Assembly: GCA_045543555.1 (NCBI GenBank)
Contig: JAZQMQ010000018.1
Span: 10,985 to 74,984 of the forward strand
DNA length: 64,000 bases
Origin: Eubacteriales bacterium
GTDB lineage: Bacteria > Bacillota > Clostridia > Oscillospirales > CAG-272
Direction: 5' to 3'
Shown: piece after piece, positions 10,468 to 33,455 of the stretch
Layout of the letters: every line of letters starts with the position of its first letter
Position numbering within the stretch: position 1 is the stretch's first letter
The notes under the pieces: model-generated
The model's input: the letters and a program-made list of their open reading frames with translations, nothing else
The model's database searches: none
What the model was told of the DNA's origin: nothing
Translations under genes and position numbers: made by a program

Positions 10468-10468
10468 A

Positions 10469-16851: not shown

Positions 16852-18555
16852 TTATATATTGTTGTCCATCCAGCTCCAACGGTTTACTATAAAGTCACGG
16901 ATATATTGAATATGGGACTGGTAGGTCTTGTATTTTGTAATGCTTTTAGGCTGGGGGCTTACGGCTCTTTTTCCGAGTACGTTCCAAACCTTGAAGTTAT
17001 ATTCTGCACTTACAGAGAGTGTTTTTCCCATTTCGTCAACACAGTACAGTGCTTTTTCAAGAAGATCGTCCTTCGCCTCATCCCAGCGAAGCTTAAGCTT
17101 TGCTTTGAATGCAGGATCTTTCATGAGATAACACATCCAGTTGTCGTCGATATATTCGTGCTTTTGGGAAAGATTTGCCCAGGATGTGTAGTCACCGAAA
17201 TCGTTGTACAGATTACCCATTGCAAGATCGTAATCCCAAATAGGACCCATTTTAAGCAGTCCGCCGCTTTCCTTCATTATGAAGCAACTGCGTCTGAAGC
17301 AGGATTCGAGATTGTAGAAAAGCTCTGTGGATATAAACCAATCGATAAGATAGTCAACGTCGATATAGTTTTCGTAACCGTTTAAGGTTTTGACCGCTGA
17401 ATTTGCTTTTTTTACGTAATCTATAATGAAGTTTGCTTGTTCCTTTATAATTTTATCATCTTCGGGATATTCTATTGAGCAGTAGCGCACAAGGTCGGTG
17501 TGCAATGCGGTAAGACCGTATTGATCGTCGTCTTCAACACCTCCTATTTCTATAAGGAAGGAAGTGTCTGCTTCGCCGTTGTCTTTGGGAAGATCGATTC
17601 TGTTCTCCGAGATGTCTCTGTCCTCCCCTATAGTGTATACACCGATATATACACCGTTCAAAAATACGTTTACGGGGTATTGAGAGAGCGGACAAAGCTC
17701 GTGTGAGAGTACCTTTGAGGTTTCGTGTGCCACGAAATTTCTTATTAGTGAGTAATCAGCGTAGTTTGCAAGAAGTATCCATTTTTTTGCTTCTGCCATG
17801 CCGAGAACTTCGGTCTTATTATAAAATTTAAGCTTGTACGGCTTTTTCGCCCAACCCCAAGTGGAATTTCCTCTTCCTTTTATCTCTGCTCGGGTAGGCT
17901 CAAGTGATGCAAATCCCTCCGGAAGATACCAACCGTTAACGCCTTCGGCATCGATTGTGACCATGGCATCAATATATTCTTCTTTCGAGACAATTCCTTT
18001 TCCTTCTTCGGTGTCTATGCTTATTACAGGAATTACATTACCGCTGTATTCAACTATTATTTCATATTGTTTTGTGAGACCGTCGTTATCGGTCAGCGTG
18101 ATGTAGCAATTGTCTGTCAAATTGACCTTGCCACCATTGTTGGCACTTGAAAATTCGACCGTTGCGGCATCTGCTTCAACGTCAACAATCGCATTTTTCA
18201 GAGTGAATGAGTCTGTTGGAGCAATGACGGTGAAGATTGCTTTACCATCTTCAATAACAGCGGTCAGACTCTCGCACATATTTTTATTTTTGTTTTTATC
18301 GACCGTCAATGAGATAAGAAAGCAGCTTGGCTTCGGTGGCTCGGTTGTTACCTCCTCGGTTGTTGTTATCGCCTCTGTCGTTTCAGCTTCCGTCGTTTCT
18401 TCGGTTTTTGTGGTGGATGACGGAGTGTTTGGCTGGGTTATGGGGGCGGTTTCAGTTTCGGTAAACTTTGGGGCAGAGTTTTTCTCTGCACAGCCTACGG
18501 CAGAAAAAAGCAACGAGACTGAAGCAAGAATTAATGCGATTAGTCGTTTGATCAT
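16852..18555 (-). CDS. CotH-family (spore-coat-kinase-like) lipoprotein with a Thr/Glu-rich linker
   Basis: Lipobox LFSAVGC. The linker is TETETAPITQPNTPSSTTKTEETTEAETTEAITTTEEVTTEPP. CotH blocks KKPYKLKF, LLANYADYSLIRN and GPIWDYDLAMG are present. Confidence 0.8.
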   Translation of the reverse strand: MIKRLIALILASVSLLFSAVGCAEKNSAPKFTETETAPITQPNTPSSTTKTEETTEAETTEAITTTEEVTTEPPKPSCFLISLTVDKNKNKNMCESLTAVIEDGKAIFTVIAPTDSFTLKNAIVDVEADAATVEFSSANNGGKVNLTDNCYITLTDNDGLTKQYEIIVEYSGNVIPVISIDTEEGKGIVSKEEYIDAMVTIDAEGVNGWYLPEGFASLEPTRAEIKGRGNSTWGWAKKPYKLKFYNKTEVLGMAEAKKWILLANYADYSLIRNFVAHETSKVLSHELCPLSQYPVNVFLNGVYIGVYTIGEDRDISENRIDLPKDNGEADTSFLIEIGGVEDDDQYGLTALHTDLVRYCSIEYPEDDKIIKEQANFIIDYVKKANSAVKTLNGYENYIDVDYLIDWFISTELFYNLESCFRRSCFIMKESGGLLKMGPIWDYDLAMGNLYNDFGDYTSWANLSQKHEYIDDNWMCYLMKDPAFKAKLKLRWDEAKDDLLEKALYCVDEMGKTLSVSAEYNFKVWNVLGKRAVSPQPKSITKYKTYQSHIQYIRDFIVNRWSWMDNNI

Positions 18556-18714: not shown

Positions 18715-19524
18715 ATGTTCCGAGAAAAGATCATAGAAAAATTTGTACTGGGAAAAAATGGTGATCGCTGATTGGCGAGGATATTATCGTTGAAGGAAAA
18801 TATTTTTACGCGGTAATCGACGGAGTTACATCAAAAAGTACAAAAACTTATAACGGTATGGAAACCGGACGCTATGGTGCTTATCTTGTCGCACAGGCAA
18901 TAGAGGACCTTGATGAATGGGATACGGCTGAGGAGGCTTTGAAAAAGATCGACAGCTGGATCGCGGATCAGTATGGCGATGAACTGCCCCCACCTGAGGA
19001 AAGGATACAGGCATGCGCGGTGATATACAGCCGTGCAAGAAGGGAAGTATGGAACTACGGAGACTGTGCTCTCATTATAAATGGTAACGTATATACTCAC
19101 GAAAAGAAGATCGATCAGGTGCTTGGCGGTCTCAGGGCCTTTATAATTCACGAAGCAATTAAGCTGGGCTGCGATACGGACTCGCTTTATGAAAACGACT
19201 TCGGCAGGGAAGCGATAATGCCGTATTTGAAGAAGCAGGCGATTTTTGCAAATCCCGACGGACCGTTCGGATATCCCGTTATCGACGGAAGCGGAATCAA
19301 CGTATCGATGATCAAGGTGTACGGGGTTGAAAAGGGGGGATATGGTAGTTCTTGCAAGTGACGGATATCCCGCCATTTGCCCAACGCTCGATGAGTCTGA
19401 GAAGGAGCTTAAGAGAATTCTTGATAGCGATCCGCTTGCTATTTGTGAAAACATTCAGACAAAAATGATGGTTAAAGGAAATCTGTCGTTTGATGACAGA
19501 GCTTACCTCTGCTTTGAAGTATAA
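18715..19524 (+). pseudogene. PP2C-like phosphatase-family gene (assignment tentative) with two frameshifts
   Basis: MFREKIIEKFVLGK / ...GEDIIVEGKYFYAVIDGVTSKS...YGVEKG / DMVVLASDGYPAI.... The second break is a 6-G run at 19330-19335 where 5 G would restore the frame. Confidence 0.5.
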
Positions 19525-19590: not shown

Positions 19591-19619
19591 TTGACAAATG
19601 ATTAAAGATGAGGTAAAAT
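19591..19619 (+). promoter_or_regulatory. Sigma-A promoter of the atypical Opp-like operon, giving a leader of about 160 nt
   Basis: TTGACA at 19591-19596, a 17-nt spacer, TAAAAT at 19614-19619. Confidence 0.65.
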
Positions 19620-19780
19620 GTCAGTAAATCTCTATGCAATTCTACTCCTGGGCTTTTTAACGGCGTGATCGTATCGAAGGCCCTTAAATATTGCATATAT
19701 TATTTTGAATATACGGTGAACACGCTGTTACGTGCCACCTTATATTATAAATTATTATTATGTTTTGGAGGAAACCCAAG

Positions 19781-22003
19781 ATGAAAAGAACCAGACTTCT
19801 GTCTCTTCTTCTTATCGTTTTTCTTGTAGTTGGCGTTCTCGCCGGCTGCTCAGAGAAGAAGGACAAAGGCTACGTTTTCGATCCCGCTGACGTAGTCGCA
19901 CACAAGTCCTACACCTCCGTCTACGATGAAATCGGTTCCAAGATCACCGCAGACATGGTTGTAGAAAAAGACGGTTTTGCTTACGTTACCTATGAGGGCG
20001 TAGAGTATGAGCTTGGTATGGACTTCCTGTCCATGGCTATGGTTTATAACTGCACTCCTAAGGGCAACTTCAAGACCGCTGAAGAGGTTTACAACTTCTG
20101 GTGGAAGCTCTATATGCAGAGATGGAACTATCTCGCTCCTGAGATCCCGCTCTATTCCAACCAGTACTTCGACCTCTACAACGCTAAGATCGAAGGCTTT
20201 GAAACCACTCCTTACTGGAGTGCTGCTGATGCCATCATCAAGGCAACCGTTAAGACTGAAGACAACTCCGTAATTCTCGGCTCTTCTACCGAGCTTTCCG
20301 GCGCTTTCCGTAACTCCAGCTGGGGTAAGTCTTCTCCCGGATCTTCCGACCTCGATATCCAGAACCTCACCTCCGGACACGGCACTGTTCAGACCGGTCC
20401 TGACGGCGCAATGCTTTGGAATATGCAGGCTCTTGCTGCGGTTCCTACCTCTGTTAAGAACGAGGACGGCACTCTCACCTACACCATCAAGGTTAGAAAC
20501 GACCTTAAGTTCTCCGATGGCTCCGCTATCAACGCAAAGAACTACATCGTATCTATCCTTGCTAACTCCACCGCTGTTGCAGTAGCAGCAGGCGGAACCG
20601 GTAACTCCGGTATGCAGATTGTTGGTTATGATGCATTCAAGGGCTATGAAGGCAAGAACGATGGCCAGGCAGTGCTTGACAAGGATGGCAACGCTACCGA
20701 CGTTGTTGCTTCCAAGTACTTCTCCGGCGTTAAGCTTATCGACGACTACACCTTCTCCATCACCTTCCTTGCTGATTACGCAGATTACTACTATGTAATG
20801 TCCTACGCTTCCTACTCTCCCGTTCCTATGGCTCTCTATGCTGGCGAGTACGACATCATCGTAAACGACGACAAGAGCTGCGGTCTTGCTGACGGCTTCT
20901 ATGCTAAGGCAACCAAGGACGGCGTTGAGCAGTACACTATGGCTGAGGTTATCGTCAACAACCTCAAGTGGGATTCCGCTCTTCCTTACTCCGGACCCTA
21001 CGTAGTTAAGAACTACGACGCTGCTAACCTCATCGCTACCCTCGAGCTCAACCCCAACTATCCCGGTGACGACGCTCGTGGCAAGGCTACCATCAAGACC
21101 ATCACCTACGTAAAGATGGTTTCTGAGACTCAGATGGACCAGTTCAAGACCGGTCAGATCGACGTTCTCGCTGGTATCACCGGCGGTGCTGACACCAAGG
21201 CTGCTCTTGCACTCGTTGCTGAGAGCCCCGACAAGTATGCTGAGACTCACTATGACCGTGCAGGTTACGGTAAGCTCGCATTCCGTGGCGACCTCGGTCC
21301 TACCGCTATGGTAGAGGTTCGTCAGGCAATCATGTACACCATCAACCGTCCTGAGTTCGCTCAGAACTTCACCGGCGGTTACGGTTCCGTTGTTCATGGT
21401 CCTTACTACACCGGTATGGCTGCATACAAGGCAAATGAGAGCATTCTCAACCTTAACCCCTACGCATACAGCTCCGACAGCGCTATCGAAGTTCTCGAAG
21501 AGGGCGGTTGGATCTACAATAAGGACGGCTCTGAATACGACGCAGAAAAGGGCGGCGTACGTTACAAGAAGCTTTCCGGCTTCGAGCTCTCCGAGCAGAA
21601 CCTTAAGTACTCCTCTATCGACGGTAAGTACAAGACCGTTAAGGTAGGCGAAGACTTCTATATGCCTCTTGCAATCAACTGGTACGGCACTCAGCCTAAC
21701 GACGTTACCGACCAGCTTATCACTGCATGGCAGAACAACCCCAACGCTACTACCGCAATCGGTATGTACATCACCTACACCAGCTGTGATTTCAACTCCG
21801 GTCTCTACGGTGAGTACCTCCAGATCGAGCAGTACGGTTGGGACGGAGTTGCTAAGTGTGCCGCTATCAACTTCGCTACCGGCTTCACTTCCGCAATCTA
21901 TGATCAGTCTTACTACTGGACTATCAACCAGGATTACTACGCAGACTACTCCAACAACTACATCATGGATGAGGCTGACTTCTGGGAGAACTACACTAAG
22001 TAA
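19781..22003 (+). CDS. Oversized (about 740 aa) family-5 (Opp/Dpp-type) ABC substrate-binding lipoprotein
   Basis: GGAGG lies 8 nt upstream of the ATG at 19781. Lipobox VLAGC. Family-5 SBP character is seen, for example FSDGSAINAKNYI. The protein is about 200 aa longer than typical OppA/DppA. Confidence 0.8.
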   Translation: MKRTRLLSLLLIVFLVVGVLAGCSEKKDKGYVFDPADVVAHKSYTSVYDEIGSKITADMVVEKDGFAYVTYEGVEYELGMDFLSMAMVYNCTPKGNFKTAEEVYNFWWKLYMQRWNYLAPEIPLYSNQYFDLYNAKIEGFETTPYWSAADAIIKATVKTEDNSVILGSSTELSGAFRNSSWGKSSPGSSDLDIQNLTSGHGTVQTGPDGAMLWNMQALAAVPTSVKNEDGTLTYTIKVRNDLKFSDGSAINAKNYIVSILANSTAVAVAAGGTGNSGMQIVGYDAFKGYEGKNDGQAVLDKDGNATDVVASKYFSGVKLIDDYTFSITFLADYADYYYVMSYASYSPVPMALYAGEYDIIVNDDKSCGLADGFYAKATKDGVEQYTMAEVIVNNLKWDSALPYSGPYVVKNYDAANLIATLELNPNYPGDDARGKATIKTITYVKMVSETQMDQFKTGQIDVLAGITGGADTKAALALVAESPDKYAETHYDRAGYGKLAFRGDLGPTAMVEVRQAIMYTINRPEFAQNFTGGYGSVVHGPYYTGMAAYKANESILNLNPYAYSSDSAIEVLEEGGWIYNKDGSEYDAEKGGVRYKKLSGFELSEQNLKYSSIDGKYKTVKVGEDFYMPLAINWYGTQPNDVTDQLITAWQNNPNATTAIGMYITYTSCDFNSGLYGEYLQIEQYGWDGVAKCAAINFATGFTSAIYDQSYYWTINQDYYADYSNNYIMDEADFWENYTK

Positions 22004-22036
22004 TTTCTTCCACAACTGAAATATCAGTGAACTAAA

Positions 22037-22083
22037 TATAGGAAGGGCGTTGAAAAATGCCCTTCCTATACCGCTTTTTTTGT
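22037..22083 (+). terminator. Intra-operon hairpin (partial terminator or mRNA-stabilising stem) after the SBP gene
   Basis: A 12-bp stem, tataggaagggc/gcccttcctata, is followed 4 nt later by tttttttt. Confidence 0.6.
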
Positions 22084-22150
22084 TTTTTACAATTTTATTT
22101 GATTATATCTGGATCGGCCTTGTATAAGGCCAAGAAATTGGAGGATTCCG

Positions 22151-23173
22151 ATGGGCAAATATATGTTGAAGAGAATGGTATATATTGTTCTCGTCTTCTT
22201 TATCCTCTCGTTCCTGCTGTTCATGATTTACAATATGGTTCCCGGTGCGGACAAGTCTTATGAGTATGCAAAAGCAGAATGGCAAGTTAATAAGCAGCTC
22301 GATCTTGATGAACGTGTTGCGTATTGGCAGGAAAAATTAGGAACGAACGGTACTAAATTTGAAAGATATCTCCGTTGGATCGGAGTTTACCCCTATAAAA
22401 ACGGCTCATTTAATGGAATACTGCAGGGAAATTTCGGAACTTCAACGAAATTTGCCAAGCCAGTAATTGAAGTTATAAAGGAGCCGATGGAAAATACGAT
22501 ATTTATTAATATTTTTGCTACTATTCTCGCACTCGGTATCACTATACCGCTCGGCATCTTCTGTGCTGTCAAGCGCGGAAGCAAGCGAGACGTAGGAGTG
22601 CAGGTCGGTACTATCGTAGGCTACAGTTTGCCGATTTTTATTATTGCGATAGTGTTCATATGGGTGTTTGCGGTGTTACTGGGCTGGTTCCCGGTATCGG
22701 GTATGCAAAACGCAAATTATCTTAGCTGGCCTAAGTGGAAGCAGTTCCTTGATAAGATGTATCATCTGTCACTTCCCCTTATCGTTATGACCTTTACGTC
22801 TCTGGGCGGTATGACACGTTTTGTCCGTGCATCCATGATCGAGGCTCTTTCCATGGACTGTATCCGTACCGCACGTGCAAAGGGCTTAAGAGAAAAGGTA
22901 GTTATCTATACTCATGCGTTCCGCAATGCGCTTCTTCCCATTACTACCCTTATTATCGGATGGTTCCTCGGAATTTTCGGCGGATCAATGATGATCGAAA
23001 ATATTTTTGCTCTTAACGGTATAGGTAAAATCTATTATGATGCTCTTCAAGCTTCTGATAATGAACTTGTACTCGGTCTTCAGCTGTTCTACATAACCAT
23101 CGCACTTGTCGGTAATCTTCTTATCGATATCGCGTACGGTCTTGTAGACCCGCGTGTTCGTGTCAATAAGTAA
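22151..23173 (+). CDS. OppB/DppB-type ABC permease
   Basis: Starts MLKRMVYIVLVFFILSF. Also carries the BPD_transp_1 core ...CIRTARAKGLREKVVIYTHAFRNALLP.... Confidence 0.85.
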   Translation: MGKYMLKRMVYIVLVFFILSFLLFMIYNMVPGADKSYEYAKAEWQVNKQLDLDERVAYWQEKLGTNGTKFERYLRWIGVYPYKNGSFNGILQGNFGTSTKFAKPVIEVIKEPMENTIFINIFATILALGITIPLGIFCAVKRGSKRDVGVQVGTIVGYSLPIFIIAIVFIWVFAVLLGWFPVSGMQNANYLSWPKWKQFLDKMYHLSLPLIVMTFTSLGGMTRFVRASMIEALSMDCIRTARAKGLREKVVIYTHAFRNALLPITTLIIGWFLGIFGGSMMIENIFALNGIGKIYYDALQASDNELVLGLQLFYITIALVGNLLIDIAYGLVDPRVRVNK

Positions 23174-23187
23174 GGAGGCAGTATAAT

Positions 23188-25146
23188 ATGAAAAACGAAA
23201 ACAAAAATACTGCCAAAAAGAACGGCATCTTCTCAACTATCAAGCGTTGGGGCAGACGTATGTTCTTCGGCGCAAGCAACGAGATGTCAAAGGACGTTCT
23301 TTTCGTTGAAAAGATTGAAAGCCCGTCCGTTATGGCTGTTAAGGCATTCTTCCGCAGAAAGCTGGCAGTTGGAGCTCTTGTGGTGCTTGTTTCCTTGTTC
23401 CTTCTTGTATTCATCGGACCGCTCGTTATGCCGATGGATCTTAACTATGAGGATCCCCTTCAGGCAAACATTGCGCCTACGCTTTCTATGCTTGATGTTC
23501 CTAAGGCAGTTAAAAATGACGTTAAAACTATCACTGGATTTTCTAACTTCACAATAGGACTCAATAATTCCGGTAAGGTATACCTTTGGGGTAATACCAA
23601 TGATGCACTTTCCAACGTTGATTTTTCCGATATTCCCGATGAAGTAAAGAACGGTAAGGTCGCTTATATCGCATCGGGTTCCGACCACATTATTGCAATT
23701 ACCGAGGATGGAAAGATCATCGGTTGGGGTGATAATACCGTTGGTCAGTACGGATATGTGAAGAATGAAAACGATCCGTACATTCAGATGCCAAGCGAGT
23801 TTATAGAAGGCACAATTGATGCATCTAAGGTCGATCAGCTTATCTGCGGCTTCCAAGCAACAGGTCTTATTGTCGACGGACAGCTGCATATGTGGGGAAA
23901 CACAAATGCACTTCTCAGCTTGAAGGAATATTCCGAAGGCAAACTTCCTAGCGAGGGTGTTAAGAAGGTTGCTTTCTCAAACTATTATGCGCTTCTTCTT
24001 ATGGAGGACGGAACCGTAACAGGCGGTACTACACTGTCCCTTAATCAGACTGGATATTCCAGCACTGAAGGCAAGATTAAGAATCTCGGTGCTTATCTTG
24101 AGGGAAAGACTGTAGTTGATATTGCTGCTACAAACAACTGCTATTCTTTGGTAATGGCAGACGGAAGCGTTATCGTGTTCGGAAGCTTTCAGTACGGCGA
24201 AACTGATTTCCCGAAATTCGCAAACGGCGAAAAGGTTGTATCCGTTACCTCAGGTACACGTCACTTTGCTGTAATCACCGATAAGGGTCTGGCTTACACT
24301 TGGGGTCACAATGACCACGGTCAGGCAAGCCTCAAGGGTGTTCCCGCATCCGAAGTATATTGCGGATCCAAGCAGACCTATATTGTGAATGAAAACGACG
24401 ATGTAACCGCAAAGGCAGGTCTTAAGGGCTACCTTATGGGCACCGATAACCGCGGAAGAGATGTTCTTACACGTATCATCCACGGCGGTAAGATGACTAT
24501 GACGGTCGGTGCTGTTTCGGTTATTGTTTCGACGATTATTGCTATTATTGTTGGATGTATTTCCGGATATTTCGGTGGTTGGGTCGATATGCTTCTGATG
24601 CGTGTTACCGAGATTTGCTCATCTATTCCTTTCCTGCCGTTTGCAATGATGCTTTCATATGTACTTAATACAACAGATTTGAGTAATTACGGAGATCAGG
24701 ATAAAATCAGGATATTTATCATAATGATAATACTCGGACTCCTTTCTTGGCCGGGTCTTGCAAGAATGATTCGTGCACAGGTGCTTGCAGAGCGTGAAAA
24801 GGAATTCGTGGTTGCAGCTAAGTCAATGGGTGTTAAGGAAAGCAAGATCGCATTCAAGCACATCCTGCCTAACGTTATTTCGATAATTCTCGTTAACGTT
24901 ACTCTCGATTTCGCAGGTTGTATGCTTACCGAGTCCTCGCTTTCTTATCTCGGATTCGGCGTTCAGCTTCCTCAGCCTACTTGGGGTAATATGCTTAATG
25001 GTGCTAAAAACAGCCTTGTTATCCAGAATTATTGGTGGCAGTGGGTATTCCCGGCAATCTTCCTTGCAATTGCAACCATCTGTATCAACATTATAGGCGA
25101 TACGCTCCGTGACGTCTTCGACCCCAAGAGCAGCAGTGAAAGATAA
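23188..25146 (+). CDS. OppC/DppC-type ABC permease with a roughly 310-aa RCC1-like beta-propeller inserted in the first extracytoplasmic loop
   Basis: TM1 covers residues 59-81. Residues of about 100-410 contain six or seven repeats of the type GKVYLWGN, GKIIGWGDNTVGQYG, GQLHMWGN, GSVIVFGSFQYGE, GLAYTWGHNDHGQ. The canonical LMGTDNRGRDVLTRIIHG motif and permease core follow. Confidence 0.8.
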   Translation: MKNENKNTAKKNGIFSTIKRWGRRMFFGASNEMSKDVLFVEKIESPSVMAVKAFFRRKLAVGALVVLVSLFLLVFIGPLVMPMDLNYEDPLQANIAPTLSMLDVPKAVKNDVKTITGFSNFTIGLNNSGKVYLWGNTNDALSNVDFSDIPDEVKNGKVAYIASGSDHIIAITEDGKIIGWGDNTVGQYGYVKNENDPYIQMPSEFIEGTIDASKVDQLICGFQATGLIVDGQLHMWGNTNALLSLKEYSEGKLPSEGVKKVAFSNYYALLLMEDGTVTGGTTLSLNQTGYSSTEGKIKNLGAYLEGKTVVDIAATNNCYSLVMADGSVIVFGSFQYGETDFPKFANGEKVVSVTSGTRHFAVITDKGLAYTWGHNDHGQASLKGVPASEVYCGSKQTYIVNENDDVTAKAGLKGYLMGTDNRGRDVLTRIIHGGKMTMTVGAVSVIVSTIIAIIVGCISGYFGGWVDMLLMRVTEICSSIPFLPFAMMLSYVLNTTDLSNYGDQDKIRIFIIMIILGLLSWPGLARMIRAQVLAEREKEFVVAAKSMGVKESKIAFKHILPNVISIILVNVTLDFAGCMLTESSLSYLGFGVQLPQPTWGNMLNGAKNSLVIQNYWWQWVFPAIFLAIATICINIIGDTLRDVFDPKSSSER

Positions 25147-25166
25147 AGAGGTGGAAGGAGAAAACT

Positions 25167-26186
25167 ATGGCACTTTTAGAAGTAAAAAACCTTCATACCT
25201 TCTTTAAAACAAGAAAAGGTATTGTAAAGGCTGTAAACGACGTTTCTTATTCTCTCGAATCCGGAAAAACCATCGGTATCGTTGGCGAGTCGGGCTCGGG
25301 TAAGAGCGTTTCGGCAATGAGTATCCTTCAACTTCTCGACGGAAATGGCTACATTGCCGACGGAGAGATCATTTTCGAGGGCACAGACTTAACAAAGCTC
25401 ACCCAGGATCAGATGTACGATATCAGAGGTAACAAGATATCCGTCATCTTCCAGGAGCCTATGACGAGCTTGAACCCCGTTTTTAGCGTTAAAAAACAGC
25501 TCAGCGAGCCTTTTATGATCCATCAGAAGATGAAAAAGAAGGAAGCTGAGGCAAAGGCTCTTGAAATGCTCTATGCAGTTCAGATCCCCAATCCCGAGCA
25601 GGTAATGAGACAGTATCCTCATCAGCTTTCGGGCGGTATGCGTCAGAGAGTTATGATAGCTATGGCGCTTGCATGCAGACCTAAGATCCTTATCGCCGAT
25701 GAGCCCACTACCGCTCTCGACGTTACGATTCAGGCTCAGGTGCTTCGTCTGATGAATGATCTTCAGAGAGAAAACGGCACTTCAATTATATTCATAACAC
25801 ACGACCTCGGCGTAATCAACGAGATGGCTGACGACGTCGTTGTTATGTACTGCGGTCAGGTTGTCGAGCAGACCTCCGCAAGAACTATTTTCACGAACTG
25901 TCCCGTAAGCCATCCTTACACGGAAGGACTTATGTACAGTATTCCGAGAATAGACAATATTACCGAAAAGCTCGAACCCATTCCGGGTGTTGTTCCTCAT
26001 CCTCTGGCACTTCCCAAGGGATGCAAATTCGCGCCCAGATGTAAATATGCAACGCAAAAATGTCTTGAAGAGGAGCCTCCGTTGCTTGAGGTAAATCCCG
26101 GACAGAAGGTTCGTTGTTTCTATCCCGATAAGGAGGTGCGAAACAGTGTCGAACACCAACAAACTGTTGTCAATAACAAACCTTAA
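25167..26186 (+). CDS. OppD/DppD-type ABC ATP-binding protein
   Basis: Walker A GESGSGKS, signature LSGGMRQR, Walker B LIADEPTTALD. The C-terminal oligo_HPY motif has CKFAPRC. Confidence 0.9.
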   Translation: MALLEVKNLHTFFKTRKGIVKAVNDVSYSLESGKTIGIVGESGSGKSVSAMSILQLLDGNGYIADGEIIFEGTDLTKLTQDQMYDIRGNKISVIFQEPMTSLNPVFSVKKQLSEPFMIHQKMKKKEAEAKALEMLYAVQIPNPEQVMRQYPHQLSGGMRQRVMIAMALACRPKILIADEPTTALDVTIQAQVLRLMNDLQRENGTSIIFITHDLGVINEMADDVVVMYCGQVVEQTSARTIFTNCPVSHPYTEGLMYSIPRIDNITEKLEPIPGVVPHPLALPKGCKFAPRCKYATQKCLEEEPPLLEVNPGQKVRCFYPDKEVRNSVEHQQTVVNNKP

Positions 26187-27795
26187 AAAGTATTTCCCGA
26201 TAGCAAAGAGCCACATTTTTCAGAAAAATCAGCTCTACGTAAGAGCTAACGAGGAAATTACCATAGACATTATGCAGGGTGAGACCTTCGGACTTGTCGG
26301 TGAATCGGGTTGCGGTAAATCCACTCTCGGAAGAACCGTGCTCCAGCTTTACGATCAGACCGCGGGAAGCACAATGTACTACGGACGTACTGTTGCAGAT
26401 CTTGCCCCTAAGTACGTCGAAAAAACATTGAAAAATGCTCCCAAAATGATCGCGCTCTATCACAAGGCGCAGAAAAAGGCAGACGATCTTGCAACGCAGT
26501 GTGAGGAGCTCGGCGACAACGCTACGTTCTTCCAGCTTCAGAACAAGAACCTTGCAGCTGCAGAGGCTGAAACGGCTTTCAATAACGTTGTTAAGATCCT
26601 CGGCGGATTTGCTGCTCTTGACGATTGCCGTACAGGAGCTGACCTTCTTCTTAAGAAGTACAAGACCGACGTTGCTATCGCTAAGCTCAACGAGAAGATC
26701 AGACTTGTTGACAATGAGATCGATTTCTGCGAAGCTTCTGTAAAAGAGCTTAAAAATTCTGCGGACAGAGTTAAAGCAGAGAAGAAGATTCATTCATTTA
26801 ATGCAAAGAAAACGAAGTTCGTTGCTAAGAAGAAAAAGCTCTCATCGGAAATGGATAACCTGCTTAAGGTCCTTGATGCTGACAATGCCGCAATCGATGC
26901 GCTCAAGTCTCAGCACGTAGGTGATGAGAAGTTTGACGAATACGAAAAGCATCTCGACACAGGCCTTGATTTGAGCCGTCTTAAGTATTCCGAAATGAGA
27001 CTTCTCCGCAAGGACGTTCAGATCATTTTCCAGGATCCTTATTCTTCGCTTAACCCCCGTATGACTGTCGGTCAGATAATCGAGGAAGGACTTGTAACAC
27101 ATAAGTACTTCAAGCACGGTTCTCCTCAGATGAAGGAATACATCATCGAGATCATGCGGCGTTGCGGACTTCAGGATTATATGATCCACCGTTATCCTCA
27201 CCAGTTCTCAGGCGGTCAGCGACAGAGAATCTGTATCGCGAGAGCTTTGGCTGTTAAGCCTCAGTTCATCGTATGCGACGAGTGCGTTTCCGCTCTTGAC
27301 GTTTCCATTCAGTCTCAGATCATTAACCTCCTTGAAGAACTCAAGGAAAAGGATAATCTCACATACCTCTTCATTTCCCACGACCTTTCTGTCGTAAGAT
27401 ACATTTCCGACCGTATTGGTGTTATGTATCTTGGAAATATGGTAGAGCTCGGAACTGCAGAAACAATATTCAAGGATCCCAGACATCCTTATACTGTTGC
27501 ACTTCTTTCCTCCATACCCACAACCGATATGGAGAGCTTGACCAAGGAGCGTATTATCCTTGAGGGTAATATCCCCAGCCCGATCAAGCCCCCGGAGGGA
27601 TGTAAGTTCCACACACGTTGCTACATGGCTTGTGATAAGTGTAAGAGAGTTCCTCCTCCTTATGTTGAGGTTGATCCCGGACACTTTGTTGCTTGTCACT
27701 TCCTCGATAAGAAGATTGATGAGAACGGTAACTATCTCTTTGATGTTCCCACAAGAACCAGAAACACTAGAGTAACTGAGCCTGATCAGGAGTAA
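26146..27795 (+). CDS. OppF/DppF-type ABC ATP-binding protein with a roughly 195-aa predicted coiled-coil insertion
   Basis: A GTG start follows AGGAGG. Walker [10 protein letters not shown] is at residues 52-60. A long K/E/A/L-rich segment covers residues of about 86-280. Then come [22 protein letters not shown] and [11 protein letters not shown]. Confidence 0.85.
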
Positions 27796-27798
27796 TTT

Positions 27799-28011
27799 AT
27801 GCGCTTCGGACTCAAAAAAGAGGCACATATAAAGTCGGAAGAAAGAATGCTTGAGGATGAACTTAAGCTGAAAGAGGAGATCAGCAAGGAAGGTGGATTT
27901 GATAAGCACGATGCTGTTGCAATGATCATATCTGCTTACATTGTAATTGTTCCCGTTGTTCTTCTGGCGCTGTGTATTATGCTCGGCATTGGATATCTTC
28001 TGTTTACGTAA
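27799..28011 (+). CDS. Small (70 aa) single-pass membrane protein, translationally coupled to the ATPase gene
   Basis: AGGAG is 6 nt upstream and the gene starts 4 nt after the upstream stop. A charged N-terminal half (EERMLEDELKLKEEISKEGG) is followed by one TM helix. Confidence 0.5.
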   Translation: MRFGLKKEAHIKSEERMLEDELKLKEEISKEGGFDKHDAVAMIISAYIVIVPVVLLALCIMLGIGYLLFT

Positions 28012-28017
28012 TAATTT

Positions 28018-28051
28018 ATCGCCGCTTGATATACAAGCGGCGATATTTTTA
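28018..28051 (+). terminator. Rho-independent terminator ending the ABC operon
   Basis: An 11-bp stem, atcgccgcttg/caagcggcgat, is followed by attttta. Confidence 0.8.
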
Positions 28052-28079
28052 TTGACAATGTTTTCATATGTGATATAAT
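28052..28079 (+). promoter_or_regulatory. Sigma-A promoter of the SGNH/SGNH/phosphatase unit
   Basis: TTGACA at 28052-28057, a 16-nt spacer, TGaTATAAT at 28071-28079. Confidence 0.65.
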
Positions 28080-28113: not shown

Positions 28114-28680
28114 ATGATAAAGGTTGCTTTACTTGGTGATTCCATCAGACAGATCGGATACGGAAACGCAGTTTGTGAGCTTTTAGGTGACGAATACAGC
28201 GTATTTCAGCCCAACGATAATTGCAGATTTGTAAAATATACGCTTCGCTGTGTTTTGCATGAATGGAGATCTTCTCTTGAGGAAAGCGACGTTATCCATT
28301 GGAATAACGGACTTTGGGATATTTGCAACCTTGGTGACGGAGTTTTTACGACGTACGAAGAATATAGAGAAAATATGTTAAGGGTTGCTACGGCGCTCAA
28401 AAAATATGGAAAAGCAGTTATTTTTGCAACGACCACACCTGTAAGAGACGGGCATCCGTACAATTCTAATGATGTAATAAAGGAATATAATGATCGTATT
28501 GTTCCGGAGCTGATAAATATGGGTATCATTATTAATGACCTTCATAAGACAGTGGTTGCAGATGTCAATAAATATATTCTCGAAAGCGATATGATACATC
28601 TATCTGAAGAAGGTATTAATGCTTGCGCAACTCAGGTTGCAGAAATCATCAGAGCAACAGTAAAGGACGCTAGAAAGTGA
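28114..28680 (+). CDS. SGNH/GDSL-family hydrolase
   Basis: Block I LLGDSI, block III NNGLWD, block V DMIHLS. Confidence 0.8.
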   Translation: MIKVALLGDSIRQIGYGNAVCELLGDEYSVFQPNDNCRFVKYTLRCVLHEWRSSLEESDVIHWNNGLWDICNLGDGVFTTYEEYRENMLRVATALKKYGKAVIFATTTPVRDGHPYNSNDVIKEYNDRIVPELINMGIIINDLHKTVVADVNKYILESDMIHLSEEGINACATQVAEIIRATVKDARK

Positions 28681-28689
28681 GAAAAAGCA

Positions 28690-29337
28690 ATGAACTTGGG
28701 TAATGTAGTCATATTCGGAGACAGCTATTCAACCTATGCTGGCTGTATCCCGGAGGGATATGCCCACTACTACGGCAGAGAAGATACCGAAGGCTGCGGC
28801 GTTAAGAACGCCGATATGACCTGGTGGCGTATGCTGATAAATGAATGCGAGGGCAATCTGCTCTTAAACGACAGCTGGTCGGGATCAACTGTTGGCTATA
28901 CGGGTTATAATGGAGATTGCTCAAAGACCAATTCCTTTATATTCCGCCTTCAGAGGCTTATTGAAAACGGCTTCTTTGAAGACAACAAAATCGATACTAT
29001 TCTCGTTTTTGGCGGCACTAACGACAACTGGGCTAACGCTCCCGTGGGTGAGGTTAAGGCAGGTGACATTGAATGGGACGAGCGCTTCCTTGTGCTTCCC
29101 GCGTTCTGTCACTTTGCGTCACTTCTTAAAAAGTGCGCTCCCTCCGCACGCGTTATCTTTATTGTAAATACCGATCTCAAACCAGAGGTTGAGCAGGGAA
29201 TTATCCGCGCAGGTAAGCTTTACGGCTATGAGAGTGTTCTTCTTTCCGACATCGATAAATATTCGGGACATCCTACTGATCTCGGCATGGTGCAGATAAA
29301 GGATCAGATAAAGGATCAGATAAAGGCGGTACTCTGA
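28690..29337 (+). CDS. SGNH-like hydrolase (second paralogue type)
   Basis: FGDSYS, SWSGS, GGTNDN and GHPT blocks are present. The C-terminus contains a QIKD tandem repeat. Confidence 0.7.
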   Translation: MNLGNVVIFGDSYSTYAGCIPEGYAHYYGREDTEGCGVKNADMTWWRMLINECEGNLLLNDSWSGSTVGYTGYNGDCSKTNSFIFRLQRLIENGFFEDNKIDTILVFGGTNDNWANAPVGEVKAGDIEWDERFLVLPAFCHFASLLKKCAPSARVIFIVNTDLKPEVEQGIIRAGKLYGYESVLLSDIDKYSGHPTDLGMVQIKDQIKDQIKAVL

Positions 29338-29984
29338 TGGTAAGATTTATTATAGTGCGCCACGGGTATAGTGTGACAAATAAAGTACAAATGTTCGCAG
29401 GACATCTTGATGCCGAGCTTGACGAGATAGGCTATACTCAGGCACAGTATCTGAAGAACTACATCTGCTCAAATTATCATATCGACAGCATATATTCAAG
29501 TGACTTAAGAAGAGCGGTTGACACCGTGCGCCCCATTGCCGACGAGCTTGGACTTGAAATAAAGACCGAAAGCGGAATCAGAGAGCTTGATGTGGGAGAG
29601 TGGAAGGGCCTTTTAACTTCGGAGGTTGCGGAGAGATACCCAGAATCCTATGCAGTATTCCTCAAGGATGTTGGTAACGCTCATCCCGAGGGTGGAGAGA
29701 GCTATTCCGACCTTGCTGAGAGGACGGATGAAGCATTCAGGCGCATAGCAGCTGAAAACGAAGGCAAAACGGTTCTTGTCGCAACCCACGGCGGTGTAAT
29801 AAGAGTCCTTCGTTGCCTTTGGGATGGCTACTGCGTAACTCATGCTCAGGTGCTCCCCCACGTTGCTAACGCTTCTGTTTCCGTTGCAGAATATGATAAT
29901 GGCAAATTCAACTTTGTATCCGTCGGATATGCCGGTCACTTAAACGATAATGTCAGCCAAAAAGATGTAAAACAACTTTTTTAA
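29337..29984 (+). CDS. Histidine phosphatase family protein (phosphoglycerate-mutase-like)
   Basis: The RHG motif appears in IIVRHGYSVTN, and ATHGGVIR appears later. Confidence 0.8.
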   Translation: MVRFIIVRHGYSVTNKVQMFAGHLDAELDEIGYTQAQYLKNYICSNYHIDSIYSSDLRRAVDTVRPIADELGLEIKTESGIRELDVGEWKGLLTSEVAERYPESYAVFLKDVGNAHPEGGESYSDLAERTDEAFRRIAAENEGKTVLVATHGGVIRVLRCLWDGYCVTHAQVLPHVANASVSVAEYDNGKFNFVSVGYAGHLNDNVSQKDVKQLF

Positions 29985-30141: not shown

Positions 30142-30807
30142 TTATTGACCAATAAGTTCAAAACGATTGCGTTTACTTTTTATCAGTCCTTCGTTGCAAA
30201 GCTTGCTTATTTCATTGCTTAATCCGCTTCGGTCAACTCCAAGATAATCGGCAAGCTCCTGACGGTCAAAGGGGATGACAAAAATGTTGCTTCCTGCTTT
30301 TTTTGATTGAATGCTGAGATACTTAAGAAGCTTTTCTCTTGTGGTTTTTCCTGATGTAATTTCAATGCGCTGATGGAGAATAATATTTTGTGTGGCGATG
30401 TCCTTCATTAAATTAAAAATTAATTGATGATGAAATCCGCATGCGTTTGAACAGGTATGAAGTATATGAGAGCATTCAATGAACATAACGTAGCTAGGCT
30501 CGTCTGCAATGACTGAAAAAGGGAGCTTTTTTATATCGGAGGCTGCAAATGCCTCGCAAAAGGTTTGTGAGGGAAGAACCTCGGAGAGAATTATACGATT
30601 CCCGTCGTAATCAAGAGAGGTAACGTGAAGTACACCGGATAAAACTATACCAATGTGACGTGCGCGGTTGCCCTCTGCCATCACGGTATATTTTTTGTCG
30701 AAAAAATCCACCCTTGCGCCGAGACAATTAAGCATTTTTAAAAGCATATCTCGCTCAATACCTAAAAAAAGAGGACAATTTTTTAAAATATCAAAATATT
30801 TTTCCAT
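30142..30807 (-). CDS. Crp/Fnr-family transcriptional regulator
   Basis: A cNMP-binding-like N-terminus and a C-terminal HTH, RQELADYLGVDRSGLSNEISKL. The start is placed at the ATG at 30807, which has GGAG upstream, because the longer ORF would include the palindromic operator. Confidence 0.85.
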   Translation of the reverse strand: MEKYFDILKNCPLFLGIERDMLLKMLNCLGARVDFFDKKYTVMAEGNRARHIGIVLSGVLHVTSLDYDGNRIILSEVLPSQTFCEAFAASDIKKLPFSVIADEPSYVMFIECSHILHTCSNACGFHHQLIFNLMKDIATQNIILHQRIEITSGKTTREKLLKYLSIQSKKAGSNIFVIPFDRQELADYLGVDRSGLSNEISKLCNEGLIKSKRNRFELIGQ

Positions 30808-30820
30808 ACTTTTCTCCATT

Positions 30821-30836
30821 TGTTGAAAATTCAACA
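30821..30836. promoter_or_regulatory. Perfect 16-bp palindrome TGTTGAAAATTCAACA, a candidate Crp/Fnr-family box in the divergent promoter region
   Basis: It has the 5-6-5 architecture of TGTGA-N6-TCACA-type sites. It is centred about 41.5 nt upstream of the TSS predicted from TATAAT at 30858-30863. Confidence 0.55.
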
Positions 30837-30896
30837 TACATATCATTTGTATTATACTATAATTAGTTCAGAAAATCAAGGAGAAACAAAAAGTTT

Positions 30897-31592
30897 ATGA
30901 AAAGAAAAATAATAAAAATAGACGATGAAAAGTGTAACGGTTGCGGCATTTGTGCTAAAGCTTGTCATGAGGGAGCTATCGAAATGATCAACGGTAAGGC
31001 TAAGCTTACCCGTGAAGATTACTGTGACGGTCTTGGTGATTGTCTCCCCGCTTGTCCTACAAACGCAATAAGCTTTGAGGAACGTGAAGCGCCGGCTTAT
31101 AATGAGGCAGCAGTCAGAGCGGCAAAGGAAGTAAAAAATGCAGAAAATCATTCTTGCGCCTGCCCCGGTTCACGCTCGCGGTCTATAAGCAGGGAAGGAC
31201 AGTATCGGCAAAAGAGTCAAACCACTCCCAGCCAGCTGATGCAGTGGCCATGTCAGCTTAAGCTCGTCCCGGTAAACGCTCCGTATTTCGATAATGCAGA
31301 TCTGCTTATTGCAGCTGACTGCGCTGCATATGCTTACGGAGGATTCCATCAGGACTTTATGAGAAACCGTATAACCCTTATAGGCTGTCCTAAGCTTGAC
31401 GAAGGGGATTATTCTGAAAAGCTAACGCAGATAATAGCGTTTAACAATATAAAAAGTGTCAAGGTGGTTCGTATGGAGGTTCCTTGTTGCGGAGGTATCG
31501 AAAATGCGGTAAAGCGTGCTTTGATGAATAGCGGAAAATTTATTCCGTGGCAGGTGATTACAATTACCACGGATGGAAAAATAATAGAATGA
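30897..31592 (+). CDS. 4Fe-4S dicluster ferredoxin-domain protein with a Cys-rich C-terminal domain
   Basis: CNGCGICAKACHEGAI and CDGLGDCLPACPTNAI are present. The C-terminal part contains ...GCPKLD...VPCCGG.... Confidence 0.75.
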   Translation: MKRKIIKIDDEKCNGCGICAKACHEGAIEMINGKAKLTREDYCDGLGDCLPACPTNAISFEEREAPAYNEAAVRAAKEVKNAENHSCACPGSRSRSISREGQYRQKSQTTPSQLMQWPCQLKLVPVNAPYFDNADLLIAADCAAYAYGGFHQDFMRNRITLIGCPKLDEGDYSEKLTQIIAFNNIKSVKVVRMEVPCCGGIENAVKRALMNSGKFIPWQVITITTDGKIIE

Positions 31593-31664
31593 AATAGATT
31601 TTCTATTGCAATACAAATAATAATATGATATAATCGCAAATGAATAAAAATGAGGTGGTTTAAT

Positions 31665-33455
31665 ATGTTTATTACAAACGACATAAAATATATAGGAGTA
31701 AACGACCATAAGGTGGATCTGTTCGAGGGACAGTATAAGGTGCCAAACGGTATGTCTTATAAGTCCTATGTGATTCTGGTTGAAAAGATCGCAGTTATGG
31801 ATACCGTGGACAGAAATTTTACACACGAATGGCTCGACAATCTTGAGAGTGTACTTGATGGCAGACATCCCGATTATCTTATAATTCAGCATATGGAGCC
31901 CGATCATTCGGCAAACATAATGAACTTTATGAGTGCCTATCCCGATGCGGTGATCGTATCCTCGGCAAAGGCATTTGCCATGATGAAAAATTACTTCGGC
32001 ACAGATTTTTCCGATTGCCGTATAGTAGTTGGCGAGGGTGACACCCTTACCCTCGGCAAGCACACCCTTGCATTCGTTGCAGCACCGATGGTCCACTGGC
32101 CCGAGGTAATCGTGACATACGACGTAACCGAAAAAATTCTTTTCTCCGCCGACGGCTTCGGTAAATTCGGAGCGCTCGACGTAAACGAGGAATGGGCGGA
32201 TGAGGCGAGACGCTACTATATCGGTATCGTCGGCAAGTACGGTGTGCAGGTGCAGGCGCTTCTCAAGAAGGCGGCAGGACTTGACATTGCGATGATCTGC
32301 CCCCTCCACGGACCTGTGCTCAGTGAAAATCTCGGCTATTACATCGGTCTTTACGATACCTGGTCAAGCTATCAAGCAGAGGAGGAGGGAATAGTAATTG
32401 CCTATACCTCCGTTTACGGAAACACCAAAAAGGCGGTAAATCTTCTTGCCGAAAAGCTCACCGAGGGCGGCGCTCCAAAGGTTATCGTTTATGACCTGGC
32501 AAGATGCGATATGGCTCAGGCAGTTTCCGATGCCTTCAGATACAGTAAGCTTGTACTTGCAACCACCACCTATAACGCCGACATTTTCCCCTTTATGCGC
32601 GAATTTATCGACCACCTTACCGAGCGTAGCTTCAAGAACCGCACCGTCGCTCTTATCGAAAACGGCAGCTGGGCCCCTCTTGCGGCAAAGGTTATGAAGG
32701 ATATGCTTGCGGTCTGCAAGAATATCACCTATACCGATACAACGGTGAAGATCCTCTCGGCTCTTAACGACGAAAGTCTGTTACAGCTTGATTCTCTTAC
32801 TGAGGAGCTTTGTCGCGAATACGTGGCAAGAGAAAGCTCAAGAGCGAATAAAAACGATCTTTCAGCTTTGTTCAATATTGGCTACGGTCTATATGTTGTT
32901 ACCTCTAATGATGGAAAGAAAGACAACGGCCTTATCGTAAACACTGTAACTCAGGTTACAAATACCCCAAACCGTATTGCAGTAACCATAAACAAGGCAA
33001 ATTACTCCCACCATATTATAAAACAGACGGGAACAATGAACATAAACTGTCTGTCTCAGGAAGCGCCCTTCTCGGTATTTGAAAGCTTCGGCTTTGTAAG
33101 CGGAAGAAACGTTGACAAATTTAAGGATTGTCAGCCTCTTCGTTCTGATAACGGCCTTGTTTTCCTACCCAAATATATCAATTCCTTCATGTCTCTCAAG
33201 GTAGAGCAGTATATCGATCTCGATACTCACGGTATGTTCATCTGCTCGGTCACCGAGGCGAGAGTTATCTCTGACCGTGAGACTATGACGTACACCTATT
33301 ATCAGAACAATGTCAAGCCCAAGCCCGTAACCGAGGGAGTGAAGGGATACGTCTGCAAGATCTGCGGATATATCTACGAGGGTGAGACTTTGCCCGACGA
33401 TTATATTTGCCCTTTGTGCAAGCACGGGGTAAGTGATTTCGAAAAAATTCAATAA
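31665..33455 (+). CDS. Multidomain flavodiiron protein: metallo-beta-lactamase-like diiron domain, flavodoxin, flavin-reductase-like domain and rubredoxin
   Basis: The diiron motif HMEPDH, flavodoxin IVIAYTSVYGNTKK, a Flavin_Reduct-like segment YGLYVVTSNDGKKDNGLIVNTVTQV, and C-terminal CKICGY...CPLCKHG. Confidence 0.85.
   Translation: MFITNDIKYIGVNDHKVDLFEGQYKVPNGMSYKSYVILVEKIAVMDTVDRNFTHEWLDNLESVLDGRHPDYLIIQHMEPDHSANIMNFMSAYPDAVIVSSAKAFAMMKNYFGTDFSDCRIVVGEGDTLTLGKHTLAFVAAPMVHWPEVIVTYDVTEKILFSADGFGKFGALDVNEEWADEARRYYIGIVGKYGVQVQALLKKAAGLDIAMICPLHGPVLSENLGYYIGLYDTWSSYQAEEEGIVIAYTSVYGNTKKAVNLLAEKLTEGGAPKVIVYDLARCDMAQAVSDAFRYSKLVLATTTYNADIFPFMREFIDHLTERSFKNRTVALIENGSWAPLAAKVMKDMLAVCKNITYTDTTVKILSALNDESLLQLDSLTEELCREYVARESSRANKNDLSALFNIGYGLYVVTSNDGKKDNGLIVNTVTQVTNTPNRIAVTINKANYSHHIIKQTGTMNINCLSQEAPFSVFESFGFVSGRNVDKFKDCQPLRSDNGLVFLPKYINSFMSLKVEQYIDLDTHGMFICSVTEARVISDRETMTYTYYQNNVKPKPVTEGVKGYVCKICGYIYEGETLPDDYICPLCKHGVSDFEKIQ

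Follow-up and report, generated by a model that had tools for sequence, protein, structure and literature searches.

Organization of the operon

A contig from an Eubacteriales bacterium of the Oscillospirales (GenBank assembly GCA_045543555.1, contig JAZQMQ010000018.1, positions 10,985 to 74,984 of the forward strand) contains an operon for an ATP-binding cassette (ABC) importer of the Opp/Dpp type, several subunits of which carry unusual modules. The window analysed spans 64,000 nucleotides, and all coordinates below refer to it. The operon belongs to a conserved Opp/Dpp-type importer subfamily of uncultured gut Clostridia, present in hundreds of genomes and metagenome contigs down to about 35% OppC identity. 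In the window, six open reading frames (ORFs) on the + strand encode a substrate-binding protein (SBP), the permeases OppB and OppC, the ATPases OppD and OppF, and a protein of 70 residues.

Pfam and NCBIfam scans were run on the operon proteins. The Pfam identities agree with the six-gene Opp/Dpp operon drawn in a preliminary description of this DNA, except for the 70-residue protein, which has no Pfam match. The best NCBIfam matches of all five large proteins are models of the Opp/Dpp/Nik type, and all of them fall below the equivalog cut-offs. Judged by domains and motifs, the core machinery of SBP, OppB, OppC, OppD and OppF is intact, with catalytic and four-cysteine motifs kept in both ATPases. 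The features of the operon are as follows.

19591..19619, + strand: sigma-70-like promoter candidate (TTGACA, 17-nt spacer, TAAAAT; 11 of 12 consensus positions), by consensus match only
19760..22003, + strand: family-5 substrate-binding lipoprotein, circularly permuted; 747 residues, probably 740 from M8 at 19781
20042..20266, + strand: relocated canonical C-terminal segment of the SBP, residues 95–169 (match to OppA 9p48_A residues 503–559)
22037..22070, + strand: internal terminator-like hairpin in the interval between the SBP gene and oppB (perfect 15-bp stem, then a U-run; −29 kcal/mol, z = −5.9)
22151..23173, + strand: ordinary OppB-type permease, 340 residues (BPD_transp_1, E = 1e-37; best NCBIfam match Opp4B)
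23188..25146, + strand: OppC-type permease, 652 residues, with a large insertion between transmembrane segments (TM) 1 and 2 (OppC_N at 45–97, BPD_transp_1 at 452–647)
23485..24432, + strand: seven-bladed RCC1-like beta-propeller, OppC residues ~100–415 (RCC1_2, AlphaFold2, DSSP, Foldseek)
25167..26186, + strand: canonical OppD ATPase, 339 residues, with a C-terminal four-cysteine motif (ABC_tran and oligo_HPY)
26146..27795, + strand: OppF ATPase, 549 residues, with an insertion in the ABC-beta subdomain and cysteines C486/492/499/517 (split ABC_tran and oligo_HPY)
26401..26961, + strand: helical arm of OppF, residues ~86–272 (AlphaFold2, confidence 81–98)
27799..28011, + strand: tail-anchored membrane protein, 70 residues (ORF, upstream GGAG, family alignment)
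28017..28055, + strand: intrinsic terminator (12-bp GC-rich stem, hairpin 28017–28045, and T-run; −22.3 kcal/mol, z = −6.8)

The six genes had been described as bracketed by one promoter and one terminator. Both signals are present, the former as a consensus match and the latter as a stable hairpin, but a second strong hairpin (22037–22070) lies inside the unit, after the SBP gene, and the account of one terminator for six genes is therefore incomplete. This internal hairpin may act as a partial terminator or attenuator, or as an mRNA stabilizer, giving an excess of SBP; signals of this kind are common in operons that overproduce their binding protein. An Rfam search at the operon found no riboswitch or leader. 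The OppF gene starts with GTG and overlaps the OppD gene by 41 nt, and the ATG of the 70-residue protein, in frame with oppF, stands 3 nt after the OppF stop codon, with its own GGAG 6 nt upstream, within the end of oppF.

The OppC propeller

BPD_transp_1 was detected in both permeases and OppC_N in OppC only; their best NCBIfam matches are Opp4B and Opp4C. OppB is an ordinary permease, as first described. The membrane part of OppC matches, in Foldseek, the OppC/DppC chains of Escherichia coli OppBCDF and Mycobacterium tuberculosis OppABCD.

Between OppC_N and the permease core, OppC contains matches to RCC1_2 (83.1 bits against a cut-off of 22) and RCC1 (38.6 bits against 21.7); WD40_RLD, which models the entire domain, stays under its cut-off (115 against 150). 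In an AlphaFold2 model built from 71 homologues, residues ~100–415 have a predicted local distance difference test score (pLDDT) of around 90 and form seven blades as assigned by DSSP. The top Foldseek matches in the Protein Data Bank (PDB) are UVR8, BLIP-II, RPGR, HERC2 and RCC1, with a probability of 1.0 for UVR8, BLIP-II and RCC1; BLIP-II superimposes with a TM-score of 0.64–0.68 on the target and a root mean square deviation of 3.7–4.5 Å. The propeller lies between TM1 (residues about 58–80) and a GTDxxGRD motif that precedes TM2, and therefore faces the cell exterior. The suggestion of an RCC1-like propeller in the outer loop of OppC thus holds, with RCC1_2 above its cut-off and a confident seven-bladed fold. 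A low-complexity, fold-less origin of the insertions, raised as a caveat in the preliminary description, disagrees with the pLDDT of the propeller and with that of the OppF arm (81–98).

Larger RCC1-containing OppC proteins were also encountered (P0263, 876 residues; P0274, 1,142 residues; L079, 822 residues), and the OppC homologues P0322, P0326, P0354 and P0390 have TM1–TM2 loops of 350–470 residues without any Pfam match. The outer loop of OppC seems to be a place where domains are commonly inserted.

The substrate-binding protein

The 747-residue protein matches SBP_bac_5 with 114.7 bits (cut-off 32.4, E = 7e-33) and has a lipobox, LAGC, at residues 27–30. Its first ATG (19760) has no visible ribosome-binding site and the second (19781, M8) follows a GGAGG by ~8 nt; the true start is probably M8, from which the signal peptide is that of a typical lipoprotein.

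The closest solved structure is an OppA (9p48_A, 562 residues, E = 2.8e-22), for which a literature search on the PDB code 9P48 found no paper. SBP residues 107–163 align with the extreme C terminus of this structure (503–559 of 562), and the relocated segment searched alone against it gives E = 2.6e-6; residues 176–264 and 410–550 align with its N-terminal and middle parts. When the sequence is de-permuted computationally, it becomes collinear with 9p48_A. Within the same transporter family, the segment equivalent to residues 95–169 is N-terminal in 82 loci and C-terminal in 23, as in L091 (residues 646–706 of 708, 60% identity). Because these sister lineages have the same segment at the C terminus, the SBP of the window is, from the alignments, a natural circular permutant of their arrangement. 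The additional residues 31–94 are restricted to the 82 loci with the N-terminal segment, and the non-permuted relatives are still long (600–740 residues). What had been taken for an extra module of the SBP is thus largely a permutation of the usual C-terminal segment, plus ~65 new residues. NCBIfam scans of the N-terminal and C-terminal pieces gave nothing informative.

A 721-residue antisense ORF (19850–22015, − strand) shadows the whole SBP gene. The interval 20001–22000 has a G+C content of 0.51, compared with about 0.42–0.45 nearby, and a negative GC skew. This ORF most probably reflects the base composition of the SBP coding sequence rather than a real gene.

The ATPases and the OppF arm

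Both ATPases contain ABC_tran and oligo_HPY, the ABC_tran match being split in OppF, and the Walker A, Q-loop and signature motifs were located in both. OppD is ordinary, as described, with 46 residues from Walker A to the FQDP motif; the same distance is 234 residues in OppF, which corresponds to an insertion of about 188 residues. When OppF is aligned with E. coli OppF (8z21_D) or M. tuberculosis Rv1281c, the match is interrupted between residues 86 and 273, and the OppF core is 45–49% identical to E. coli OppF and DppF.

In the AlphaFold2 model, the insertion (pLDDT 81–98) comprises helices 98–125, 128–157, 162–203 and 208–255, arranged as two helical hairpins that meet at a conserved GG. 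Motifs at the base of the arm are conserved and the distal hairpin is variable. A folded insertion of ~190 residues between Walker A and the Q-loop is therefore retained from the preliminary description, which had called it a coiled-coil arm; four helices in two hairpins replace the single coiled coil. The ATPase core of OppF is poorly scored in this model, most likely because the alignment is shallow and narrow. Foldseek with the OppF model against the PDB returned ordinary nucleotide-binding domains only, none with an equivalent arm. In SMC/Rad50-type ATPases, too, a long helical insertion splits the ABC fold, and kinship with them was considered and rejected: the SMC_N match, at 25.8 bits, is under the cut-off of 40, the insertion precedes the Q-loop and has ~190 residues in two hairpins, and the protein is otherwise a typical OppF.

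The oligo_HPY regions of both ATPases contain C-x5-C-x6-C-x17-C (OppD, 26023–26125; OppF, 27601–27696). E. coli DppD and DppF each hold a [4Fe-4S] cluster on four cysteines (PMC12136057), and the spacing in OppD and OppF, known here from sequence alone, is that of the E. coli site.

Insertions at the site of the arm are found elsewhere. The NCBIfam profiles for OppD/OppF of the Mollicutes (NF043079, 561 residues; NF043078, 649 residues) have extra sequence between Walker A and the Q-loop: window OppD aligns from residue 80 onward to profile position 297 onward, leaving ~220–340 additional profile positions. The large insertions mentioned for these proteins in the preliminary description are thus evident in the profiles. 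The window proteins score far below the cut-offs of the Mollicutes equivalogs (245 against 740 and 288.6 against 800), the OppC model for Mollicutes has the usual length (307), and what the inserts share with the window arm is their site. In the relatives L049 and L050, OppD (about 9905–11020) has a ~30-residue insertion at the same site (gap of 76–78 residues, against 46). Together with the Mollicutes profiles, this suggests that the Walker A/Q-loop segment is a recurrent insertion point in Opp-type ATPases.

The small membrane protein

The 70-residue protein had been described as a single-pass membrane protein, and its ORF, ribosome-binding site and conserved family with a transmembrane segment agree with this; more precisely, it is tail-anchored. 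Its predicted topology places the N terminus inside, followed by a cytosolic helix, first basic and then acidic, and a C-terminal TM segment. Family members share a start of M-hydrophobic-F, a basic patch, an acidic stretch and a terminal TM helix, and have an almost invariant LEKxD..AM motif; motif and reading frame are kept in more than 80 loci. In genome loci with a long arm, the small ORF has 62–88 residues and a C-terminal hydrophobic segment and lies directly 3' of the OppF gene. An independent gene-calling pipeline called the same six genes, including the 70-residue one, in the relative L161. An exact-sequence look-up of the window protein returned no record.

Distribution of the subfamily

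Homologues were gathered by a protein search with the OppC query, by searches of contigs representing one genome per species, by clustering at 50% identity and by a metagenome scan seeded with distant proteins. The OppC query returned more than 2,000 homologues, of which the best 120 all have about 650 residues and RCC1 repeats and are named, where a name is given, only 'ABC transporter permease subunit'. At least 581 matches were confirmed in the one-genome-per-species contigs. The best 80 genome matches are metagenome-assembled genomes labelled Oscillospiraceae, Faecousia, Christensenellaceae, Ca. Scatosoma, Ca. Limihabitans, Clostridium sp. CAG:448 and similar, from human, ruminant, rabbit, horse and bird guts. 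About 30 of the resulting clusters have the complete fusion, at identities as low as 34% and in some cases with larger loops, and Pfam confirmed RCC1 in OppC of the distant clusters. The metagenome scan from the distant seeds added 80 loci, with RCC1 confirmed in ten.

Co-occurrence and covariation of the modules

The co-occurrence set consists of 161 loci gathered through OppC, in which arm length was taken as the number of residues separating Walker A from FQDP or from the signature motif. The gene order SBP-B-C-D-F with an enlarged SBP is present in 80 of 80 genome loci, and the SBP is enlarged in all propeller loci. A long arm (213–241 residues) occurs in 54 loci including the window; the small ORF was found in 53 of these by script and in L037 by eye. 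Another 22 loci, from Ca. Scatosoma and allies, have a short arm or none (45–67 residues in 17, 136–149 in five); the propeller is present in all of them and the small ORF in none. Where arms are shortened, the base motifs are kept and the distal hairpin is missing. Distant metagenomic lineages again have the long arm and the small protein together. Overall, the small protein accompanies 84 of 86 assessable long-arm loci (exceptions L107 and L135) and none of 27 loci without a long arm. In L083 (8833–11257), where the order is OppC, OppF with the arm, OppD and the small protein, the arm is on the OppF orthologue and the small-protein gene comes last. Seven control loci with an ordinary OppC have neither a long arm nor the small protein.

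This phylogenetic profile alters the earlier expectation that propeller, arm and 70-residue protein go together. Since 22 propeller loci have no long arm, propeller and arm are separable modules, an outcome that the preliminary description itself had listed as counting against its proposal; the tight link is that of the arm with the small protein, not of the propeller with the arm.

Covariation was assessed with a partial Mantel test on 63 complete loci, with the signal of the four core domains removed. The pairs propeller–SBP (r = 0.22, p = 0.001) and arm–small protein (r = 0.16, p = 0.001) are followed by propeller–arm (r = 0.11, p = 0.052) and propeller–small protein (r = 0.10, p = 0.021), and the correlations of the SBP with the arm (r = −0.29, p = 1.000) and with the small protein (r = −0.15, p = 0.997) are negative. 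This pattern fits two physical pairs, one outside (propeller and SBP) and one inside (arm and small protein). Compared with the cores, the accessory modules evolve at 2–3 times the rate; mean distances are 0.57 for the propeller and 0.24 for the membrane domain.

Genomic neighbourhood

In six loci, the gene directly upstream of the operon encodes an M3 peptidase. The clade without the arm, which resembles Ca. Scatosoma (L051–L073), has the operon in conserved, ordinary synteny, with a divergent O-acetylhomoserine sulfhydrylase-like gene and a homoserine O-acyltransferase-like gene upstream (metY/metA-like) and a CBS/CorC-type gene downstream, all named by eye; GalE is also part of the synteny of this clade.

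Just upstream of the promoter candidate in the window, two overlapping + strand ORFs in different frames (18858–19361, 167 residues; 19327–19524, 65 residues) have no Pfam match and may be one frameshifted gene. The neighbours at 16852–18555 (− strand), 28114–29984 and 30142–33455 are unrelated to the operon and not conserved with it; they encode a lipoprotein with a CotH kinase domain, two hydrolases of the GDSL/SGNH type, of which one has a Pfam match, a histidine phosphatase, a regulator of the Crp/Fnr family, a ferredoxin-like protein and a fusion of flavo-diiron protein and rubredoxin.

Comparison with known systems

Opp/Dpp importers (TC 3.A.1.5), represented by E. coli OppBCDF and DppABCDF and by M. 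tuberculosis OppABCD, share with the window system the order A-B-C-D-F, a family-5 SBP, two six-helix permeases (one with OppC_N) and two oligo_HPY ATPases with four cysteines. At the level of its proteins' sequences, the window system has every testable defining feature of these importers. In the canonical systems, however, OppC has about 300 residues and a short TM1–TM2 region, OppF has about 330 residues, the SBP is unpermuted with about 520–560 residues, and there is no small membrane subunit.

The propeller has the same fold and repeat signature as BLIP-II, UVR8, RCC1, RPGR and HERC2. It is spliced into a permease loop, whereas propellers of the BLIP-II type are free or N-terminal domains. 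BLIP-II is a bacterial, secreted protein that acts outside the cytoplasm and binds a protein partner.

For the small protein, the nearest functional precedents are KdpF of KdpFABC and AcrZ, which acts with AcrB, both likewise very small membrane proteins. These act in the membrane on P-type and RND pumps, whereas the window protein has a conserved cytosolic part of ~35 residues and tracks an ATPase arm. Like these precedents, the window protein is encoded in the operon of its transporter and is proposed to bind and stabilize or tune it; a 2025 review of small transporter proteins names no ABC importer among its examples (PMC12648545).

Literature searches on RCC1 with OppC and on insertions or coiled coils in OppF returned nothing relevant, and no paper or solved structure was found for the propeller–OppC fusion, the OppF arm or the small protein. 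The statement that no characterized system has this combination agrees with these literature and PDB searches, which found no description of one.

Proposed mechanism and alternative explanations

In the cryo-electron microscopy structure of E. coli DppABCDF, DppB pairs with DppD and DppC with DppF, and the binding protein caps both permeases, whose periplasmic TM1–TM2 regions face it and differ between the two (PMC12136057). By homology, the OppC propeller and the OppF arm would belong to one half of the transporter. A pairing of OppC with OppF is plausible, and the idea of an extra outer domain and an extra inner arm on partner subunits, put forward in the preliminary description, is plausible on the same grounds. 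A function beyond plain uptake, suggested there too, is hypothetical.

The reading that we favour, with roughly even confidence, is a peptide-type importer in which the propeller is a docking platform for the SBP, and the arm and the small protein form a clamp or regulator with the small protein as a seventh subunit. A peptide-like solute would be delivered by the lipid-anchored SBP and imported. On the OppC side, next to where the SBP docks, the propeller would serve as a protein–protein platform that holds or orients the enlarged, permuted SBP; it is seen as a protein-binding platform because BLIP-II, an RCC1-like propeller that binds proteins, is among its best structural matches. Inside, the cytosolic helix of the small protein would bind the distal hairpin of the OppF arm, tethering OppF to the membrane as a seventh subunit that stabilizes or tunes the OppC–OppF half. 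We infer both contacts, propeller with SBP and arm with small protein. A peptide substrate is a tentative assignment suggested by the OppA closest to the SBP in structure searches and by the M3 peptidase gene upstream in six loci.

Several observations weigh against this picture. In NCBIfam, the SBP also weakly matches nickel (NikA) and opine binders, which keeps the substrate assignment tentative. The neighbour analysis around the operon in the arm-bearing clade found no conserved neighbour, regulator, kinase or partner gene. Because one propeller clade works without both, the arm and the small protein are not essential to a propeller-bearing transporter. On a neighbour-joining tree of OppD, the arm state requires about five Fitch changes and that of the small protein about three; their association is therefore essentially one main transition with deep co-retention and few independent events. 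The loci were found through OppC, so arms may also occur outside propeller systems. The partial Mantel signal is weak, inflated by phylogeny and prone to false positives among related sequences.

Instead of docking the SBP, the propeller might be a capture or anchoring module for a polymeric substrate, a cell-wall component or another surface protein, which would concentrate substrate near the transporter or place the transporter at a particular site of the envelope. RCC1-like repeats are indeed abundant in giant proteins returned by the OppC query (2,500–7,000 residues, with 20–38 matched stretches), and both the rapid evolution of the propeller (0.57 against 0.24) and the much larger loops of some relatives (P0263, P0274 and L079) would suit such a role. 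We nevertheless consider it unlikely: an enlarged SBP accompanies the propeller in every case and covaries with it, the neighbourhood contains no conserved partner gene, and the Pfam scan detected no carbohydrate-binding or wall-binding domain. The arm and the small protein, in turn, might not clamp the structure but act as a regulatory switch that gates the ATPase in response to a cytosolic or membrane cue. Analogues would be the C-terminal regulatory domains of MetN, ModC and MalK and the CBS domains of OpuA. The insertion is in the nucleotide-binding domain, adjoining Walker A, at a site that is also expanded in Mollicutes OppD/OppF and slightly in L049/L050 OppD, and small membrane proteins such as AcrZ and MgtS/MgtR modulate transporters (PMC12648545). 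On the other side, neither Pfam nor Foldseek recognized a ligand-binding fold in the arm, the sequence of the distal hairpin is poorly conserved, and the sequence names no cue; a switch of this kind has, in our judgement, a small chance of being the correct explanation.

Poorer still are the prospects of a transporter that doubles as a sensor ('transceptor'), relaying outside events through OppC–OppF and the arm to a cytosolic partner. The placement of outside and inside modules on partner subunits, and the weak positive covariation of the propeller with the arm and the small protein (r = 0.10–0.11), would be expected of it. Against this, the propeller persists without the long arm in 22 loci, the SBP covaries negatively with the arm and with the small protein, and no lineage has a conserved regulator, kinase or partner gene. 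With no such regulator or kinase nearby and no riboswitch, nothing in these results supports the signalling through the transporter that the preliminary description had entertained. Least credible of all, to the point of being very improbable, is that the insertions are tolerated decorations without a specific role. The OppC TM1–TM2 loop and the Walker A/Q-loop segment are recurrent insertion sites and one clade lost the arm, but the modules, with their confident folds and conserved motifs, persist even where OppC identity has fallen to about 35%, and the motif and reading frame of the small protein are retained in more than 80 loci.

Significance

Opp/Dpp importers are textbook five-component machines, the first full structures of which date from 2024–2025. 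The importer variant reported here is confirmed as real and widespread: hundreds of abundant gut Clostridia have a subfamily that adds a folded, receptor-like propeller at the docking face, a folded arm on one ATPase and a co-inherited micro-protein, in proteins that at present carry generic annotation only. If the predicted contacts hold, an obligate small membrane subunit would be seen for the first time in an ABC importer, the arm-less clade would be a natural experiment on the role of that subunit, and the family would also present a natural circular permutation of a family-5 SBP inside one transporter family. The finding also suggests a testable idea for the unexplained Mollicutes OppD/OppF insertions at the same site. 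It is conceivable, though doubtful, that all of the modules together define a seven-component class of type I ABC importers, in which a micro-subunit links an ATPase to the membrane and a receptor propeller controls SBP docking; if true, this class would represent subunit-level control of a kind not described for any ABC importer.

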